DNA from: Planctomycetota bacterium
Lineage (GTDB): Bacteria > Planctomycetota > Planctomycetia > Gemmatales > Gemmataceae
Length of the DNA stretch: 64,000 nucleotides
Assembly: GCA_016872595.1 (NCBI GenBank)
Contig: VGZJ01000001.1
Location: 5,117-69,116 of the forward strand
Reading direction: 5' to 3'
Shown here: positions 1-50,766 of the stretch, piece after piece
Numbering within the stretch: the stretch's first letter is position 1
Layout of the letters: each line of letters opens with the position of its first letter
Notes under the pieces: generated by a model
What the model was told of the DNA's origin: nothing
Databases searched by the model: none
Seen by the model: only the letters and a program-made list of their open reading frames with translations
Made by a program: the position numbers and the translations under genes

Positions 1-182
1 GGCCGGAGACGCTCGGCTTCCTGCTGCTCGCGTGTACCGACGAACTGCCCGCGCCGCTGGTTCTGCGGAGCCGCCACGCCGACAAGCACGTCTGGCGGTT
101 CCTGCTCGAGTCGAGCGCGAAGTACCCGTTCGACCCCGGCGCGGTAGTTCGCAAGTGGGTTCCGGTGCTGGCCGGTAAGTAG
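1..182 (+). CDS. 3' end of a hypothetical protein (partial, runs off the window start)
   Basis: Open frame from the window edge (codons in phase with nt 3) with strong G/C third-position bias. It ends ...YPFDPGAVVRKWVPVLAGK at TAG 180-182. No family recognised. Confidence 0.5.
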   Translation, partial: PETLGFLLLACTDELPAPLVLRSRHADKHVWRFLLESSAKYPFDPGAVVRKWVPVLAGK

Positions 183-11919: not shown

Positions 11920-13536
11920 ATGTCCGCGGCCAATCGCTATCTGGTTTCGTTCGACGCCCGCGACACGTTTCACCGCTTCGCGGACGTACTCGTCATCGGG
12001 GCCGGCATCGCCGGGCTGCGGGCGGCGCTCGAGGTCCCGCCCGACCTGTCGGTTCTCGTCGTCACCAAGGACCGTGTGACCGAGAGCAACAGTTCGTACG
12101 CGCAGGGCGGCATCGCCGGGGTGCGCGCGCCCGAGGACACGTTCGAGAACCACGTCGAAGACACTCTGATCGCCGGCGACGGGCTGTGCGACCGCGACGT
12201 GGTCGAACTGGTCGTGCGCGAGGCCCCGCACCAGATCGAGAAGCTGATCGAGTTCGGCACCAAGTTCGACGAGGAGAACGGCCGGCTCGCGCTGACCCGC
12301 GAGGGCGGGCACAGCCACCGGCGCATCGTCCACGCGCTCGGCGACAGCACCGGGTTCGAGATGATGCGCGCCACCATCGCCTACGCCCGCACGCGCCCGA
12401 ACGTCCGCATCTGGGACGACACGTTCACCATCGACCTGCTGACGCACGAGGGCGCGTGCCGCGGCGCGGTGGTCGCGCGCAACGGGACCGGCAAGTTCCT
12501 GATCTGGGCGAAGCAGGTGGTCCTCGCGTCCGGCGGGTGCGGAATGGTGTACCGCGAGACCACGAACCCCGCGGTCGCGACCGGCGACGGGATGGCCGCC
12601 GCGTACCGGGCCGGCGCGGACCTGCGCGACATGGAGTTCATGCAGTTCCACCCCACGGTCCTCTACGTCGCGGGGTCGGCGCGCTACCTCGTGAGCGAGG
12701 CGGTGCGCGGCGAGGGCGCGCACCTGCGCGACGTGAACGGGGTGCGGTTCATGCCCGACGCGGACCCGCGCGCCGAGCTCGCCCCGCGCGACGTGGTGGC
12801 CCGCGCCATCTTCCGCACGATGGAGAAGACTCAACACCCCAACGTGTACCTCGACCTGTCGCACCTCGACCCGGCGATGGTGCTGACGCGGTTCCCCGGC
12901 ATCAACCGGGTGTGCAAGGGCTTCGGCCTCGACATCACAAGGGACCGCGTCCCGGTGCGGCCCGGCGCGCACTATATGGTGGGGGGCGTGTCCGTGGACG
13001 CGCAGGGCCGCACCTCGGTGCCGGGGCTCTGGGCCGCGGGCGAAGTGACCAGCAGCGGGCTACACGGCGCGAACCGGCTGGCCTCGAACAGCCTGATCGA
13101 GGGGCTGGTGTACGGCACCAGTTGCGGGCGCGGCGCGGCCGAGGCGGTTCGCGCGATGCCGCGCGACCTGACCGCCCTGCCCTTGCGCTCGGCGGTCCCC
13201 GAAGCCGAACCGGACGCGCGGCTCGACGTGGCCGACCTCACGGCGGCGCTGCGGGCGCTGATGGTGCGCAAAATGGGCATCGTCCGCGACCGCGCGCGGC
13301 TGCTCGAAGCGAAAGAGGACTTAAGGTTCTGGTGCCGGTACGCGCTGTCGCGCGAGTTCGACGGCAAGGCCGGGTGGGAGCTTCAGAACCTGCTCACGGT
13401 GGCGCGGCTAATGGTCGCCGCGGCACTGGCGCGCGACGAGTCGCGCGGCACGCACTTTCGCAGCGACTTCCCGGCGCGCGACGACGCCCGCTGGGGCCTG
13501 CGGCACGTGACGAGCGAGCCGTTCGTCTCGCTGTGA
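11920..13536 (+). CDS. nadB: L-aspartate oxidase
   Basis: DVLVIGAGIAGLRAAL FAD-binding motif, SNSSYAQGGIAG, HYMVGGV, and the succinate dehydrogenase/fumarate reductase flavoprotein-like C-terminus RGTHFRSDFP. Confidence 0.93.
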   Translation: MSAANRYLVSFDARDTFHRFADVLVIGAGIAGLRAALEVPPDLSVLVVTKDRVTESNSSYAQGGIAGVRAPEDTFENHVEDTLIAGDGLCDRDVVELVVREAPHQIEKLIEFGTKFDEENGRLALTREGGHSHRRIVHALGDSTGFEMMRATIAYARTRPNVRIWDDTFTIDLLTHEGACRGAVVARNGTGKFLIWAKQVVLASGGCGMVYRETTNPAVATGDGMAAAYRAGADLRDMEFMQFHPTVLYVAGSARYLVSEAVRGEGAHLRDVNGVRFMPDADPRAELAPRDVVARAIFRTMEKTQHPNVYLDLSHLDPAMVLTRFPGINRVCKGFGLDITRDRVPVRPGAHYMVGGVSVDAQGRTSVPGLWAAGEVTSSGLHGANRLASNSLIEGLVYGTSCGRGAAEAVRAMPRDLTALPLRSAVPEAEPDARLDVADLTAALRALMVRKMGIVRDRARLLEAKEDLRFWCRYALSREFDGKAGWELQNLLTVARLMVAAALARDESRGTHFRSDFPARDDARWGLRHVTSEPFVSL

Positions 13537-13609
13537 CATTTTCGCCCAATCCGTTACGCCCGGTTCGTCGTCTGCCCTGTATCGCCCGTTACACTCCGAG
13601 GATTCTGCC

Positions 13610-14191
13610 GTGACGAAGATGCTGCTGCTCGCGGTCGCCGCGCTGTTCGGGTTCGGCACCGCCGCCCGCGCCGACGACAAAAACCCCATCGTGCTCAAGG
13701 TCGTTACCAAGAGCGACAAATACAAACTCGACCTCGGCGGCAAGACCGCGGAGGAGTACAAGAAGGCGCTCGAGGACGCGGCGAAGAAGTCGGCGGCCGG
13801 CGAGTTGCTCCGCCCGCCCGCGCCGCCGAAGGTGGACTTCGTGTTGGAGATCAAGAACACGGGCAAGGAAGCGGTCACGATCTTCGTCGGCGGCGACCCG
13901 AACGTGTACACGTTCGAACTGACCGGCGGCGCGGGCAGCGTGACCATGAACAGCGGGCTGGCGTTCACGGCCGACTTCCGCCTGCCGAAGGAAGTGACGC
14001 TGGCCGCGGGCAAGACCTACGAGATCGCCATCAAGCAACTGTCCGACGGGAGCCGCGGCGCGAGCCGGTTCGTGTACTGGACCGGGCCGGGCGAGTACAA
14101 GTTGACCGCGAGCTACTCGCTGGCCGACAAGGACGGGGGCAAGGGCGCGGTGCTCAAGAGCGAGGCGGTGAAGATCACCGTCGAGAAGTAA
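13610..14191 (+). CDS. secreted hypothetical protein
   Basis: Signal peptide MTKMLLLAVAALFGFGTAARA, followed by a Lys-rich beta-type sequence. Good coding bias. Confidence 0.75.
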   Translation: MTKMLLLAVAALFGFGTAARADDKNPIVLKVVTKSDKYKLDLGGKTAEEYKKALEDAAKKSAAGELLRPPAPPKVDFVLEIKNTGKEAVTIFVGGDPNVYTFELTGGAGSVTMNSGLAFTADFRLPKEVTLAAGKTYEIAIKQLSDGSRGASRFVYWTGPGEYKLTASYSLADKDGGKGAVLKSEAVKITVEK

Positions 14192-14233
14192 GCGAACCAC
14201 AGCGCCGCGCGGGGCGTCTTGTGCGATACGCAC

Positions 14234-14262
14234 TTGACTCCCCCACGCAGCGGCGTACCGTT
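14234..14262 (+). promoter_or_regulatory. possible sigma70-type promoter for the cimA leader
   Basis: TTGACT (14234-14239), a 16-nt spacer, then TACCGT (14256-14261). This is a weak -10, and planctomycete promoter rules are poorly known. Confidence 0.2.
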
Positions 14263-14283
14263 ACTTCGAGAGAGACAATTATC

Positions 14284-14358
14284 GTGCCGACCGTTTTCCC
14301 TACCCCCGCCGCTCGCGCCGCCGTGATTGGCGTCGTAGTCGTCATTACCACCGGGTAA
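14284..14358 (+). CDS. 24-codon leader peptide MPTVFPTPAARAAVIGVVVVITTG (Val/Ile/Thr-rich)
   Basis: GTG 14284 sits downstream of a GAGAGAGA tract; TAA is at 14356-14358. The terminal run V-I-G-V-V-V-V-I-T-T uses the rare codons GTA and ATT. It lies directly upstream of the attenuator helices and cimA. Below the ORF-track length cutoff. Confidence 0.6.
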   Translation: MPTVFPTPAARAAVIGVVVVITTG

Positions 14359-14359
14359 A

Positions 14360-14393
14360 CGGGGTCGGCCGAAGGTACAGCCACACGACCCCG
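14360..14393 (+). promoter_or_regulatory. putative antiterminator helix of the cimA attenuator
   Basis: CGGGGTCG (14360-14367) is the exact complement of CGACCCCG (14386-14393). The latter overlaps the 5' arm of the terminator. Confidence 0.5.
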
Positions 14394-14416
14394 GAGCGAA
14401 CGCTTCGGGGTTTTTT
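14389..14416 (+). terminator. intrinsic terminator 20 nt upstream of the cimA start
   Basis: CCCCGGAGC (14389-14397), GAAC loop, GCTTCGGGG (14402-14410): 9 bp including one G-U pair, followed by TTTTTT (14411-14416). Confidence 0.7.
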
Positions 14417-14435
14417 CGTTCCCGCGCGAGGCCGC

Positions 14436-16007
14436 ATGAGCCGCGTTTCCATCTACGACACGACGTTGCGCGACGGAAGCCAAGGCGAGGGCGTGAACTT
14501 CTCGCTCCAAGACAAACTGCTGCTCACGCGGCGGCTCGACGAGATCGGCGTCGATTACATCGAGGGCGGCTACCCGCTGTCGAACCCGAAGGACGCGGAG
14601 TACTTCCGCGCCGTGCGCGAGTTGCCGCTGGCGCACGCCGCGGTCGTGGCGTTCGGGATGACGCGCAAGAAGACCGGCACCGCGGCCGGCGACACCGGGC
14701 TGAACGCCCTGCTCGCAGCCGAAACGCCGGTCGTCACCATCGTCGGGAAAACGTGGGACTTCCACGTTACGAACGTGCTGGGCGCGACGCTCGACGAGAA
14801 CGTCGCGATGATCGCGGACTCTGTCGCCCACTGCCGCGCCGCCGGGCGCGAGGTGTTCTACGACGCGGAACACTTCTTCGACGGCTACCGTGCGAACCCG
14901 GAGTACGCGCTACGCACGCTCCGGGCCGCGGCCGACGCCGGAGCGCGTGTGGTGATCCTGTGCGACACCAACGGCGGCACGATGCCGGAGCGCGTCGCAG
15001 AGGTGGTGGCGCGTGTGAAGAGCGAGCTATCGTGCGAGGTCGGCATCCACTGCCACAACGACTGCGAACTCGCGGTGGCGAACTCGCTAGCCGCAGTGCG
15101 GGCGGGCGCGGCACAGGTACAGGGCACGATGAACGGCATCGGCGAGCGGTGCGGTAACGTCGATCTGGTGAGCGTGATCGCCAACCTCGCGCTCAAGTAC
15201 GGGCGCGAGGTGCTGAAGCCCGGCAGCCTCGCGCGGCTGACGGAAACGTCGCGATACGTGTACGAACTGGCGAACATGAACTTCCGCAGCGGGCAGCCGT
15301 TCGTCGGGCAGAGCGCGTTCGCCCACAAGGGGGGGATGCACACGCACGCGGTCGCCAAAGACCCGGCGACCTACGAGCACATCGCCCCCGAGGCGGTCGG
15401 CAACGAGCGGCGGATTCTGGTGTCCGAGCTGTCCGGGCACTCGACGATCCTGACGAAGACGACGAAGTACGCGGTGAGCCACGACAAGGCGCTGATGACG
15501 AAGATTCTGGGCGCGGTGCAAGACCTCGAACACGCCGGGTACGAGTTCGAGGCGGCGGAAGCCTCCTTCGACTTGCTGGTGAAGAAGGCCGCGGGGCTGT
15601 ACACGCCGTGGTTCGAGCGCGCCGCGTACCGCGTCAACATCGAGGCCGGCGCGGACGGCGCGCCGACCACCGAGGCGACCGTGAAGCTGCACGTCGGGGG
15701 GCGCGTCGAGCACACCGTGAGCGAGGGCGACGGCCCGGTGAACGCGCTCGACGGCGCGCTCCGCAAGGCGCTGGTTCCAAACTTCCCGCGGCTCGATGAG
15801 ATGCAGCTCGTCGATTACAAGGTGCGCGTGGTGAACGCAAAGGCCGGCACCGCGGCCCGCGTGCGCGTGGTGATCGAGTCCCGCGACGGCACCGACGTGT
15901 GGGGCACCGTGGGCGTGAGCGAGAACGTCATCGAGGCAAGCTGGCTCGCACTGGTGGACAGCATCGAATACAAACTGTTCAAGGACGAGGAGCAGTCTGC
16001 AAAGTAG
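14436..16007 (+). CDS. cimA: (R)-citramalate synthase (LeuA-related, TIGR00977 type)
   Basis: IYDTTLRDGSQGEGVNFS, YIEGGYPLSNPKD, GKTWDFHV, FYDAEHFFDGY, CDTNGG, HCHND, and a C-terminal LeuA-dimer-type regulatory domain. It closely tracks my recollection of Geobacter CimA rather than GFP-motif LeuA. Confidence 0.85.
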   Translation: MSRVSIYDTTLRDGSQGEGVNFSLQDKLLLTRRLDEIGVDYIEGGYPLSNPKDAEYFRAVRELPLAHAAVVAFGMTRKKTGTAAGDTGLNALLAAETPVVTIVGKTWDFHVTNVLGATLDENVAMIADSVAHCRAAGREVFYDAEHFFDGYRANPEYALRTLRAAADAGARVVILCDTNGGTMPERVAEVVARVKSELSCEVGIHCHNDCELAVANSLAAVRAGAAQVQGTMNGIGERCGNVDLVSVIANLALKYGREVLKPGSLARLTETSRYVYELANMNFRSGQPFVGQSAFAHKGGMHTHAVAKDPATYEHIAPEAVGNERRILVSELSGHSTILTKTTKYAVSHDKALMTKILGAVQDLEHAGYEFEAAEASFDLLVKKAAGLYTPWFERAAYRVNIEAGADGAPTTEATVKLHVGGRVEHTVSEGDGPVNALDGALRKALVPNFPRLDEMQLVDYKVRVVNAKAGTAARVRVVIESRDGTDVWGTVGVSENVIEASWLALVDSIEYKLFKDEEQSAK

Positions 16008-16059
16008 GAGGCACGCTCCGTGTGCCGTCGCTACTCACGGCACACGGAGTGTGCCTCCT
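16006..16059 (+). terminator. 22-bp hairpin overlapping the cimA stop codon
   Basis: AGGAGGCACGCTCCGTGTGCCG (16006-16027) pairs with CGGCACACGGAGTGTGCCTCCT (16038-16059): one G-U pair, a 10-nt loop, no T-run. Confidence 0.5.
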
Positions 16060-16087
16060 ACTTTGATAGACAGGGGAAACAACGATC

Positions 16088-19000
16088 ATGGCGACCGAAC
16101 TTCCGAAGGCGTACGACCCGAAGGCCGCGCAGGAAAAGTGGCTCACGTTCTGGGAACAGAAGGGCTACTTTCACAGCACGCCCGATGCAACGAAGAAGCC
16201 GTTCACCATCGTGATCCCGCCGCCGAACGTGACCGGCGCGCTGCACATGGGGCACGCGCTCAACAACACGCTCCAAGACGTGCTGATTCGCTGGAAGCGG
16301 ATGCAAGGCTTCAATGCCCTGTGGATGCCCGGCACCGACCACGCCGGCATCGCGACACAGTCCGTGGTGGAACGGCTGGTGCTTCAGCAGGAGAAGAAGA
16401 ACCGCCACGACCTCGGCCGCGACGAACTCGTGCGCCGCATCTGGGAGTGGAAGGACAAGTACGAGGCCCGCATCCTCGGCCAGCTCCGCGAGATCGGCGC
16501 GAGCGCCGATTGGAAGCGCACGCGCTTCACGCTCGACCCGGTATGCGCGCGGGCCGTGCGCGAGACCTTCTTCCGCATGTTCCGTGACGGCTACATCTAT
16601 CGCGGCAAGCGCCTCGTGAACTGGGACACGCACCTTCAGACCAGCGTGGCCGACGACGAAACCGACACGGTGGACACCAAGGGCGGGTTCTGGACGTTCA
16701 AGTATCAGGTGGACGGCGAAGCCGACACGTTCATCTCGTTCAGCACGACGCGCCCGGAGACGATGCTCGGCGACAGCGCGCTGTGCGTGCATCCAAGCGA
16801 CGAGCGCTACAAGCACCTCGTCGGCAAGACGGTGACGCAGCCGCACACTGGGCGCAAGATTCCGATCATCGCGGACGGCCAGCTCGCGGACCCGAAGCTC
16901 GGTACGGGTTGCGTGAAGGTGACGCCGGCGCACGACCCCAACGACTACGCCTGTTGGCAGCGGCACCCGGAAATCGCCGTCATCAACATCCTGAACCCGG
17001 ACGGCACGATCAACGAGAACGGCGGCGAGTACAAGGGGCTGGACCGCGCCAAGGCCCGCGACGCCGTGACCGAGAAGATGAAGGAACTCGGCCTTTACAT
17101 CGACCGCGCCGACCGCGACATCCCGCTCAAGATCAGCGACCGCAGCAAGACGCCGATCGAGCCGTACCTGTCGGACCAGTGGTTCGTGAAGATGGCCGAC
17201 CGCGACGACGCCAAGCCCGGCCTCGCGCAGATGACGATGGACGCCGTGACATCTGGGAAGGTGAAGTTCTTCCCCGAGCGCTACGCGCGCTCGTACCTCG
17301 ACTGGCTCGGCGAGAAGCGCGACTGGTGCATCAGTCGCCAACTCTGGTGGGGCCACCGCATCCCAGTGTGGCAGTCGAAGCCGATGCGCGACAAGGACAC
17401 AGTCGCGATTGCTGAGCGGCGGCTTACTCAGTGCAGTGCGCTCAGCAACGCGGTTGCAAACGAGCGGGCGTTCATCAAACTTGAGATCAACACCGAGGGC
17501 GCTGAACCGACGCTTCTAAAGAGTGATGCAGGTGCCTTCGGCGCAGTGGCAACTGCCACGAACTACATCTATGTGTGCCTTGCTGAACCGAACCCGACGG
17601 CAGAACAAGAGCTATCTGGACTCGGCTATCAGCAATCAGAGGATGTGCTCGACACATGGTTCTCGTCGGCCCTGTGGCCGCACAGCACGTTGGGCTGGCC
17701 GGGGCCGACGCTGCCGGAGGAGCGCGCCGAACGCACCGCGCCCGACTGGGACGCGATGCGCGCCTACTACCCCACCAGCACGCTGGTGACGAGCCGCGAC
17801 ATCATCACGCTGTGGGTGGCGCGTATGGTGCTAACCGGCCTCTACAACGTGGGCGACATCCCGTTCCATCAGGTGTACATCACGCCGAAGGTGCTCGACG
17901 GCTTCGGCGAGACGATGAGCAAGTCGAAGGGGAACGGGGTGGACCCGCTCGACATCATCGACCTGTACGGCACCGACGCCATGCGCTACGGCATGGTGAA
18001 ACTCGCCACCGAGACGCAGGACTCGAAGCTGCCCGTGGCGAACATCTGCCCGCACTGCAAGAAAGACGTGGCAGTGAAGCAAGAGCACATGTACATGCGG
18101 ACCAAGAAGCTCACTTGCCCTGAGTGCAAGAAGGAGTTCCGCCCCGGCGGGCCGTGGCCGACCGAAGACCCCGACCGCCCCACCGCGAAGCAAGGCTCAG
18201 ACCGCTTCGAGGAGGGTCGGAACTTCGCGAACAAGATGTGGAACGCGACGCGGTTCCTGCTGATGAACCTTGAGGGCTACACCCCCGGCCCGGTGAAGCT
18301 GGAGGAACTGCCCACCGAGGACAAGTGGCTGCTGTCGCGGCTCGCGACCACCACGAAGGCCGTGACCGCGGCGCTCGAGGGGTACAAGTTCAGCGACGTG
18401 GCCCGGCTCGTCTACGACTTCGTGTGGAGCGAGTTCTGCGACTGGTACATCGAGATGAGTAAGGGCCGGCTCAAAGACGCCGCCGCGCGCCCGCAAGCGC
18501 AGCGTGTGCTGGCCGGCGTGCTCGACGGTATCTTGCGGCTGGTGCAGCCGGTGATGCCGTTCGTGTCCGAATCGCTTTGGGAGGCGCTGCGCGACGCGGC
18601 CCCCGAGCGCGGGCTGCCGACCCCGGCGCGCGCGGAAGAGGCCGCTTGTATTGCCAAGTGGCCGTCGTACCCGGAGGCGTGGATCAGCGCCGACGTGGAG
18701 GCCCGGTTCGCGCGGATGCAAGAGCTGGTGCGCGGGGTGCGCGAGGTGCGGAACCGCTATCAGGTGGACGACAAGACGAAGCTCGACGTGGCCGTGAAGT
18801 GCAGCACGGACGTGGCCGCGGAGTTCAACGCGCTGGCCGCGTTCATCGGCCCGCTCGCCAGCATCTCCAACCTGACCGCGGGGCCGGCGGTGCCCAAGCC
18901 GAAGCCGTCCGGCGGCGTGGTGCGCCCGGAGTTCGAGGCGTACGTGGCGCTCGCCGGCCACATCGACGAAGCGGCCGAAGCGAAGCGCCTTGAGAAGCAG

Positions 19001-19171
19001 ATCGCCGACAAGAAGAAGTCGCTGGAGGGAACGAAGGCGAAGCTCGCCAACGAGAAGTTCGTGAGCAGCGCGCCCGCCGAGGTGGTACAGGCCCAGCGCG
19101 ACCTGCTGGCCGACATCGAGAAGCAAATCGCCTCGCTGGAAGAGAACCTGAAGGAGCTGAAGGGCGAGTAA
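16088..19171 (+). CDS. valS: valine--tRNA ligase
   Basis: PPPNVTGALHMGH, CISRQLWWGHRIP, DVLDTWFSS, KMSKSKGN, NFANKMWNATRF, and the C-terminal coiled coil. It contains two insertions (see findings). Confidence 0.97.
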   Translation: MATELPKAYDPKAAQEKWLTFWEQKGYFHSTPDATKKPFTIVIPPPNVTGALHMGHALNNTLQDVLIRWKRMQGFNALWMPGTDHAGIATQSVVERLVLQQEKKNRHDLGRDELVRRIWEWKDKYEARILGQLREIGASADWKRTRFTLDPVCARAVRETFFRMFRDGYIYRGKRLVNWDTHLQTSVADDETDTVDTKGGFWTFKYQVDGEADTFISFSTTRPETMLGDSALCVHPSDERYKHLVGKTVTQPHTGRKIPIIADGQLADPKLGTGCVKVTPAHDPNDYACWQRHPEIAVINILNPDGTINENGGEYKGLDRAKARDAVTEKMKELGLYIDRADRDIPLKISDRSKTPIEPYLSDQWFVKMADRDDAKPGLAQMTMDAVTSGKVKFFPERYARSYLDWLGEKRDWCISRQLWWGHRIPVWQSKPMRDKDTVAIAERRLTQCSALSNAVANERAFIKLEINTEGAEPTLLKSDAGAFGAVATATNYIYVCLAEPNPTAEQELSGLGYQQSEDVLDTWFSSALWPHSTLGWPGPTLPEERAERTAPDWDAMRAYYPTSTLVTSRDIITLWVARMVLTGLYNVGDIPFHQVYITPKVLDGFGETMSKSKGNGVDPLDIIDLYGTDAMRYGMVKLATETQDSKLPVANICPHCKKDVAVKQEHMYMRTKKLTCPECKKEFRPGGPWPTEDPDRPTAKQGSDRFEEGRNFANKMWNATRFLLMNLEGYTPGPVKLEELPTEDKWLLSRLATTTKAVTAALEGYKFSDVARLVYDFVWSEFCDWYIEMSKGRLKDAAARPQAQRVLAGVLDGILRLVQPVMPFVSESLWEALRDAAPERGLPTPARAEEAACIAKWPSYPEAWISADVEARFARMQELVRGVREVRNRYQVDDKTKLDVAVKCSTDVAAEFNALAAFIGPLASISNLTAGPAVPKPKPSGGVVRPEFEAYVALAGHIDEAAEAKRLEKQIADKKKSLEGTKAKLANEKFVSSAPAEVVQAQRDLLADIEKQIASLEENLKELKGE

Positions 19172-21690: not shown

Positions 21691-21711
21691 TCGTGTGCGC
21701 TCGCGGCGCGA

Positions 21712-23455: not shown

Positions 23456-23528
23456 GGCCCTATCGTCTAGTGGCCTAGGACGTGGCCCTCTCAAGGCCAA
23501 AACTCGGGTTCAAATCCCGATAGGGTCA
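23456..23528 (+). tRNA. tRNA-Glu (anticodon CUC)
   Basis: Hand-folded cloverleaf: acceptor GGCCCTA/TAGGGTC (one G-U), anticodon arm TGGCC-CTCTCAA-GGCCA, T arm TCGGG-TTCAAAT-CCCGA. The D region TCGTCTAGTGGCCTAGGAC is typical of tRNA-Glu. No encoded CCA. Confidence 0.9.
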
Positions 23529-50679: not shown

Positions 50680-50766
50680 TGGGCGAGGCGGGATTCGAAC
50701 CCGCATGCCCCTCACGGGGCGGCGGATTTTAAGTCCGCTGTGTCTAGCCAGTTCCACCACTCGCCC
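50680..50766 (-). tRNA. tRNA-Leu (anticodon UAA)
   Basis: Reverse complement GGGCGAG...GCGGA-CTTAAAA-TCCGC, long variable arm CGCCCCGTGAGGGGCAT, T arm GCGGG-TTCGAAT-CCCGC, acceptor CTCGCCC plus A. Confidence 0.88.

Follow-up and report, generated by a model that had tools for sequence, protein, structure and literature searches.

A candidate isoleucine- and valine-responsive leader-peptide attenuator ahead of cimA and valS in Planctomycetia

The leader region ahead of cimA

The 64-kb stretch of planctomycete DNA considered here (from contig VGZJ01000001.1, and called the window throughout) carries cimA, the gene for citramalate synthase, at 14436–16007 on the forward strand (TIGR00977, 699 bits against a cutoff of 450), followed on the same strand by valS, encoding valine-tRNA ligase, at 16088–19171 (NF004349, 1034 bits). 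Upstream of cimA lie nadB and, as nearest neighbour, a 193-aa secreted-protein gene on the same strand (13610–14191) with the signal-peptide-like start MLLLAVAALFGFGTAARA. Between this neighbour and cimA is a short leader region that, on comparison with other planctomycete cimA loci, we take with a probability of roughly 0.85 to be a functional classical ribosome-mediated leader-peptide transcription attenuator, a reading that the first-pass annotation of this DNA had put forward from the window itself. The argument draws on the anatomy, conservation, covariation and geometry of the element, from which stalling, read-through and a physiological response would be expected to follow. By similarity the window belongs to a Gemmata-like member of the Gemmataceae, its cimA being 81–85% and its nadB 88% identical to Gemmataceae records.

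The leader open reading frame (ORF), read directly from the sequence, occupies 14284–14358 on the forward strand, from a GTG at 14284 to a TAA at 14356–14358, and its 24 codons specify MPTVFPTPAARAAVIGVVVVITTG; homologous mini-ORFs are found in about 50 of the loci compared below. A mini-ORF of this length with an end rich in Val, Ile and Thr had been claimed, and it is indeed there, codons 14323–14355 reading GTG ATT GGC GTC GTA GTC GTC ATT ACC ACC GGG. The first eight of these (14323–14346, V I G V V V V I) form the candidate regulatory run, a role consistent with the Ile enrichment seen across the family. GTA and ATT are as rare in this DNA as had been supposed: in the two genes cimA and valS combined, 6 Ile codons are ATT and 54 are ATC, and 3 of the 120 Val codons are GTA. 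An ORF listing gives the same frame as a 45-aa ORF beginning at GTG 14221, a codon that lies upstream of the conserved promoter, while GTG 14284 is the first in-frame start past the predicted transcription start. Eight nucleotides before GTG 14284 is a purine tract, GAGAGAGA (14268–14275), which may act as a Shine-Dalgarno-like site and whose GAGAGAA is kept in two aligned relatives (L002 and L007).

The promoter assigned to this leader consists of a −35 hexamer, TTGACT (14234–14239), that is invariant in four aligned Gemmataceae, and, after a 16-nt spacer, a probable −10 hexamer, TACCGT (14256–14261), which would place the transcription start near 14268. A TAnnnT hexamer stands 16–17 nt past the invariant TTGACT, and at the −10 position the T, A and final T are kept in L002 and L007 (TAACTT). 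The same arrangement recurs more widely, 31 of 41 loci having TTGACn-15..19-TAnnnT no further than 90 nt before the leader start, as compared with 0.4% of random windows.

Two nucleotides past the leader stop begins the predicted antiterminator 5' strand, CGGGGUCG (14360–14367), which would pair with a 3' strand, CGACCCCG (14386–14393), that overlaps the terminator 5' arm; the exact complementarity first noted here stands, the 5' octamer CGGGGTCG being the perfect reverse complement of its partner. The intrinsic terminator hairpin itself (14387–14412, −19.5 kcal/mol) has arms GACCCCGGAGC and GCTTCGGGGTT at 14387–14397 and 14402–14412, closed by the GAAC loop already described, and with 11 pairs extends slightly further than had been proposed. 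It is followed by a T6 tract (14411–14416), the first two bases of which double as stem closure and which lies 20 nt before the cimA ATG at 14436, both features being where they had been placed. This is the only terminator-like site in the 64 kb that is preceded by an amino-acid-run mini-ORF; no other attenuator-like sites, and no other branched-chain amino-acid genes, were found within the window.

Folding of the window transcript in different states of translation gives a coherent picture. The minimum-free-energy (MFE) structure of the free transcript (−62.1 kcal/mol, against −50.7 with the antiterminator forced) combines the terminator with a helix in which region 1 (14286–14301) pairs with region 2 (14352–14369) and thereby sequesters the antiterminator 5' strand, so that the default state of an untranslated leader is predicted to be off. 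When the RNA is blocked to 14352, which mimics a stalled ribosome, the terminator (−25.1) and antiterminator (−23.2) become nearly iso-energetic, and the nascent 14353–14401 RNA folds as the antiterminator (−18.0 kcal/mol). When it is blocked to 14370, corresponding to a ribosome at the stop codon, the terminator alone can form (−21.5). In these models the energetics match textbook three-state attenuator behaviour. The complementarity of regions 1 and 2 is kept with changed sequences in relatives of the window (GCCGACC/GGTCGGC in the window, CCGAACC/GGTTCGG in L002 and GTCGCC/GGCGAC in L045).

Recurrence and covariation among planctomycete cimA loci

A CimA protein scan of species-representative genomes provided 80 cimA loci of other Planctomycetota, labelled as Gemmataceae, Fimbriiglobus, Gimesia, Schlesneria, Planctomycetaceae, Pirellulales/Pirellulaceae, Novipirellula, Rhodopirellula and similar, and five distant orthologues among them were confirmed as TIGR00977. 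A strong hairpin followed by a T-run lies no more than 280 nt upstream of cimA in 52 of the 80, most of these terminators being canonical strong hairpins (−16 to −30 kcal/mol) followed by T5–T9. For each such locus the best ORF ending 10–60 nt ahead of the terminator was taken and its last 16 codons were scored for Ile. At least two Ile codons are present in 43 of the 52, as opposed to 7.7% of random positions in the same loci and 18.7% of dinucleotide shuffles, and at least three in 29 of the 52, as opposed to 1.7% and 5.3%, respectively. An in-frame ATG stands 14–36 codons before the stop in 31 of 43 loci, compared with 19% of controls. A short ORF, Ile-rich over its last 16 codons, almost always precedes the terminator; examples, read up to the stop codon, are VVAIEIIIREVRP, VGVIIVGIIIRENYWS, MSITIITIRAIIIGWVT, MNHSICSIQNISIGGIIIARPLQHA, SSIIIICKITGSS and, in a locus close to the window, AVIGVVVVITTG.

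What recurs immediately upstream of cimA in about 50 loci is thus a common unit consisting of a sigma-70-like promoter, an ORF of 15–36 codons with an Ile-rich (secondarily Val-rich) end, and a strong terminator. Conservation of the mini-ORF with its Ile/Val run and of both alternative helices, on which the first-pass annotation had made its interpretation depend, is accordingly seen at about 50 of the 80 cimA loci, and the element is widespread among members of the class Planctomycetia. A covariance model derived from 43 of these sequences gives one match per locus, always upstream of cimA, and recovers the non-seed members L031, L056, L067, L070, L004 and L006. Within the 64-kb window it matches 14320–14420 only, with 57 bits and E = 9e-12. 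A metagenome scan with the 15-mer ATTACCACCGGGTRA, which proved too unspecific, showed the element in 0 of 120 loci among the matches listed.

The composition of the leaders bears directly on the question of which amino acid would be sensed. Over the last 16 leader codons the share of Ile is 21.7%, compared with 4.8% in cimA, a 4.5-fold enrichment, and ATT accounts for 70% of the leader Ile codons as compared with 21% in cimA. For Val, Thr and Leu the corresponding ratios are 1.44-fold, 0.98-fold and 0.27-fold. This combination of strong Ile enrichment with Leu depletion points to amino-acid-specific sensing of the kind predicted and argues against a merely hydrophobic peptide or micro-protein. 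Judged from leader composition, the residue sensed family-wide is mainly Ile, with Val second, the Val-heavy run (VVVVI) being peculiar to the clade of the window, L002, L007 and L045. The proposal of Val/Ile sensing therefore stands with its emphasis moved to Ile; Thr, which had been counted as part of the leader signal, shows no enrichment and is rejected as a sensed residue.

The alternative helices were examined both per lineage and by alignment-free duplex statistics, because MAFFT mis-aligned the lineages with one another and RNAalifold gave no pairs for a joint alignment of all 43 leaders from which the 3' terminator arm was omitted. Over 49 loci, duplexes formed by the stop-codon region with the terminator 5' arm have a mean z of −1.72 relative to shuffles, and 41% of loci fall below −2. 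Cognate partners average −15.97 kcal/mol, compared with −13.27±0.44 when partners are permuted among loci, a difference not matched in any of 10000 permutations. From lineage to lineage the antiterminator and the terminator stem change in concert: the terminator 5' arm ACCCCGGAGC goes with the antiterminator strand CGGGGU in the Gemmata type, CCCTCAGG with gccUGAgg in the Planctomycetales type and CCCTGAGGCC with ggccUAGggc in the Pirellulales type. The stop codon, which often lies inside the antiterminator strand (gccTGAgg; ggccTAGggc), tracks the stem as well, being TGA in 16 of 18 loci of the CCCTCAGG class and TAA or TAG in 13 of 15 of the CCCTGAGGCC class. On these sequences the leader's stop codon may be a component of the antiterminator helix that evolves together with the terminator stem.

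Consistent with this co-variation, RNAalifold applied to each lineage without the 3' terminator arm predicts the antiterminator in three lineages, with 11, 6 and 12 pairs. In the Pirellulales-type set, 89% of cells are paired, as against at most 61% when the strands are slid, and the covariation score of 0.278 (0.184±0.027 in shuffles) is reached in 0 of 500 shuffles. The Gemmatales antiterminator, which includes that of the window, is 90% paired, as against at most 60% slid, in an alignment of seven sequences. The terminator stem over 43 loci is 92.5% paired and contains 29 double-change cells where 13.8±2.4 are expected. Compensatory changes, named beforehand as a test of the two helices, are therefore found in the terminator stem and in the Pirellulales-type antiterminator; for the Gemmatales antiterminator they fall short, in a manner weighed below.

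The spacing of these parts is also informative. The last Ile codon is separated from the antiterminator's first paired base by a median of 16 nt (10th–90th percentile 13–25), and the 3' edge of the ribosome footprint lies some 12–15 nt away, so that a stalled ribosome would leave the strand just free. The median distance from stop to terminator is 30 nt; the stop itself lies 2 nt before the antiterminator strand in the window, and in relatives within the strand or up to about 12 nt before it. The nucleotide sequence between ATG, Ile codons, stop and helix is not conserved, and the distance from terminator to cimA start varies from 20 to 268 nt.

The genes under control are probably two. Same-strand valS follows cimA in at least 47 loci, 11 of which have the two genes only −4 to +13 nt apart, for which reason the ancestral unit is very probably a cimA-valS operon and the switch probably controls both genes; cimA, the target originally named, is retained, and gene adjacency argues that it is not the only one. 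In the window the gap is 80 nt and is spanned by a perfect 29-bp hairpin with an 8-nt loop (16000–16065, −60.1 kcal/mol, z = −10). The cimA stop codon falls within the 5' arm of this hairpin, which lacks a U-tract and occurs just once in the window. Possible identities for it are a REP-like insertion, a site of processing or stabilisation, and a partial terminator. Palindromic or tandem-repeat insertions occupy the cimA-valS site at other loci also (L045, L050 and L055, and L048 with GGGATGA repeats).

Several further features of the leaders may concern ribosome or polymerase pausing. Just ahead of the Val run, within the leader ORF of the window, lies a hairpin at 14307–14332 (−13.4 kcal/mol) that could serve as an RNA polymerase pause hairpin. 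Its equivalent in many Gemmataceae leaders (L001, L003–L006, L009, L016 and L056) has the form GCGCA-GGGAG-UGCGC and encodes the peptide AAQGVR; in L009 it reads GCGCG...CGCGC, a compensatory change that alters two amino acids and so suggests selection on the RNA and not on the peptide. Leaders of the Pirellulales type have a GGAGG/GGGAG motif 12–15 nt before the stop (IIIREVRP), and this motif, or the in-ORF hairpin, might cause pausing, either as a hairpin or in the manner of an internal Shine-Dalgarno sequence. In several loci, including L033, L034, L037, L050 and L055, the leader ends in Pro followed by the stop (EVRP, MEDGP). A Pro-stop ending slows peptide release and would, to that extent, hold the ribosome longer on the antiterminator strand.

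Two observations concern the way the leaders begin. In L003, L018, L022, L025, L026 and L074, where the promoter lies about 35–37 nt upstream of the leader ATG, the predicted −10 ends 6–8 nt before that ATG, and the leader mRNA may thus be leaderless in several lineages, starting at or next to the AUG. The window, by contrast, would have a 5' untranslated region of about 16 nt. At L010–L012, which are without the attenuator, a T-rich stretch about 70 nt upstream of the cimA ATG reads in frame CLIVVFRAIVPDSVFLLLWDGFT-M and may reflect either a mis-called start or a different leader arrangement.

Proposed mechanism and rival explanations

The leader region thus unites a leader ORF past a promoter, a cluster of codons for the end product, a terminator, a mutually exclusive antiterminator, and a spacing of stop and stall sites suited to choosing between them. 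With about 50 comparative loci, co-varying helices and this geometry behind it, the leader-peptide attenuator reading of the cimA upstream region is considerably better supported than it could be from one genome. On this reading, transcription would start at the conserved promoter (−35 TTGACT at 14234; start near 14268), and a ribosome would translate the 24-codon leader with RNA polymerase moving ahead of it. With charged tRNA-Ile and tRNA-Val plentiful, the ribosome would reach the stop codon at 14356–14358 and its footprint would cover 14360–14367. The antiterminator strand being masked, the terminator at 14387–14412 with its U6 would form, and transcription would end 20 nt before cimA. Were Ile or Val scarce, the ribosome would be expected to stall on 14323–14346, far enough upstream to free 14360–14367, which would pair with 14386–14393 once that segment is made and so sequester the terminator 5' arm. 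The polymerase would then read through into cimA-valS, with more threonine-independent Ile synthesis and, presumably, increased charging of Val-tRNA.

One rival explanation would be that the hairpin and U-tract terminate the upstream secreted-protein gene (13610–14191), the mini-ORF and the octamer being chance features of GC-rich DNA. The hairpin does lie downstream of a same-strand gene, spurious ORFs are many in DNA of this composition, and the fold z-scores of the window are not significant. Against this, the element accompanies cimA irrespective of the upstream neighbour: the 193-aa gene is present in just 2 other loci and nadB in 8, and in about half of the loci the closest coding-like ORF upstream is divergent, running on the opposite strand, although this orientation comes from a crude GC3 heuristic and is used as supporting evidence only. 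A variable upstream gene, together with a conserved promoter between that gene and the leader, argues that the hairpin is not the terminator of an upstream gene. Since Ile enrichment, ATG starts and antiterminator complementarity also stand far above controls, the comparative data effectively refute this explanation, and we regard its probability as close to negligible.

The remaining alternatives accept the switch and differ as to what operates it or how it acts. It might be flipped by an RNA-binding protein, by a small-molecule riboswitch or, in the manner of a T-box, by uncharged tRNA, the ORF being incidental; translation of the leader is a prediction from sequence, the Shine-Dalgarno-like sequence is weak, and in Streptomyces coelicolor ilvB and leuA there is precedent for leader codons that may not matter (PMC1262725). 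What is conserved, however, is conserved at the level of codons, namely an in-frame ATG, Ile codons that vary synonymously between ATT and ATC, a stop set into the antiterminator strand and a fixed interval, about 16 nt, between the last Ile codon and the helix, with the intervening nucleotide sequence free to change; and Rfam searches with E up to 1–10 yielded neither a T-box nor a riboswitch nor any other family in the window or in 8 other loci. We consider a switch of this kind very unlikely. Barely less unlikely is that a translated leader does respond to Ile/Val, with its main effect coming by a route other than the terminator switch, such as Rho-dependent polarity, mRNA stability or translational coupling to cimA. 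The wide range of terminator-to-cimA distances could be taken in its favour, as could some Gemmataceae variants (L001, L004 and L009) that have poor U-tracts or no strong terminator. The same variable distance argues against sequestration of the cimA ribosome-binding site, most loci do have canonical strong hairpins with T-runs, and the antiterminator co-varies specifically with the terminator 5' arm.

Several results and considerations nevertheless weigh against a classical attenuator and deserve to be set out together. No recognisable element is present in 28 of the 80 loci. In the window the leader has a GTG start and a weak purine tract, and the −10 candidate TACCGT is not called by a promoter consensus scan. 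Its fold energies are no better than those of shuffles (z = −0.95 and −0.77), and, the window folds not being thermodynamically exceptional, a single sequence cannot carry the claim. Covariation in the Gemmatales antiterminator is not significant, its score being reached by 60 of 500 shuffles with seven sequences. The pairing of region 1 with region 2 has no family-wide support (mean z −0.42), and we have rejected it as a feature of the family and retained it for the window's clade only. The 29-bp hairpin could limit co-transcription of valS in the window genome. Finally, mutation of the codons in the attenuator-like leaders of S. coelicolor ilvB and leuA did not give the outcome expected of classical attenuators (PMC1262725), and strict segregation of transcription from translation in Gemmata, if true, would make the mechanism impossible.

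Known attenuators, Gemmata and the surrounding DNA

The leader-peptide attenuators of the branched-chain amino-acid operons ilvGMEDA (leader ilvL) and ilvBN (leader ivbL) in Escherichia coli and Salmonella are among the closest counterparts of the cimA element. With them it has in common a short leader ORF with a run of branched-chain codons, mutually exclusive helices, a branched-chain biosynthetic target and, as predicted, masking of the antiterminator by a ribosome at the stop site and multivalent Ile/Val sensing. It differs in belonging to another phylum, in having no sequence or Rfam similarity to them, and in its target, cimA and valS instead of ilv genes; moreover, the cimA leaders are depleted in Leu, and their stop codon is often embedded in the antiterminator helix, co-varying with the stem.

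Attenuators also precede tRNA ligase genes, such as pheST (with the pheM leader) in gamma-proteobacteria and trpS and leuS in Streptomyces (PMC1262725), and these offer a precedent for control of valS by leader-peptide attenuation. In those systems the ligase gene stands first and is preceded by leader codons for its cognate amino acid, whereas the cimA leaders are, family-wide, mainly Ile-rich and valS stands second, behind a biosynthetic gene for a different amino acid. In actinobacteria, upstream ORFs with Ile/Val/Leu runs and terminators precede ilvB, including that of Corynebacterium ilvB-II (PMC1262725, PMC10272879). These resemble the present case in being comparative predictions from a GC-rich, non-proteobacterial phylum with a branched-chain run next to a terminator; their antiterminators are often unclear, and in S. 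coelicolor mutating the codons was without effect, whereas the antiterminator of the cimA element, at another gene and in another phylum, is clear and co-varying.

An Ile-specific T-box may precede cimA/leuA-like genes in Geobacter and related Deltaproteobacteria, although our literature search returned nothing to confirm it. The logic there would be alike, Ile-tRNA charging controlling terminator read-through before citramalate synthase, with the difference that the sensor is uncharged tRNA bound by RNA and not a ribosome; the window has no T-box match. More generally, Rfam 15 gave no relevant match for positions 13500–15000 of the window at E up to 10 or for the whole window at gathering score, and a search of 8 other loci with E up to 1 likewise left the element unmatched. 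Full-text literature searches found no attenuator for cimA or for a planctomycete, although a 2010 attenuator survey (Lopatovskaya et al.) could mention one. With nothing relevant in Rfam or in the searchable literature, the earlier surmise that such an attenuator was undescribed for either the gene or the phylum holds good. What is new here is the target (the citramalate route and valS), the phylum and the stop codon inside the antiterminator; the mechanism itself is classical, as in ilvGMEDA, ilvBN, thr and pheST.

Gemmata has been claimed to keep transcription spatially apart from translation (Gottshall 2014, as cited in PMC6212462 and PMC6554331), a point under dispute since 2014 (PMC6212462, PMC6554331). 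Because the switch needs ribosomes on nascent RNA, the present element bears on that debate. Taken as a whole, the proposition that there is an undescribed Ile (and Val) attenuator family across orders of Planctomycetia, that it controls cimA-valS, and that its conservation in Gemmataceae is genomic evidence of coupling in Gemmata strikes us as somewhat better than an even bet. Were it true, a ribosome would have to translate within about 100 nt of the transcribing polymerase, and a reporter built on the element would offer a simple genetic read-out of transcription-translation coupling in Gemmata.

Other consequences would follow for planctomycete genetics, in a phylum whose gene regulation is, to our knowledge, almost unexplored. 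If the reading is correct, the element would give the citramalate (threonine-independent) isoleucine pathway its first documented cis-regulatory RNA switch and Planctomycetota their first described classical attenuator, and one controlled operon would join Ile synthesis (cimA) to Val-tRNA charging (valS), which is unusual. The covariance model provides an annotation handle on about 50 loci, and the element could serve as an Ile/Val-responsive part in planctomycete genetics.

The surroundings of the element add some minor observations. Very few clean intrinsic terminators, in which the T-run comes immediately after a strong hairpin, occur in the 64 kb; two stand out among 18 loose candidates, namely the one before cimA and one at 21691–21668 on the reverse strand; by this measure intrinsic terminators look scarce in Planctomycetota. 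Rfam finds two tRNA matches only in the window, at 23456–23528 on the forward strand and 50680–50766 on the reverse. The gene content of the window is typical of planctomycetes, with Ser/Thr kinases, DUF1501, WD40 and FGE-sulfatase proteins, and gltB.

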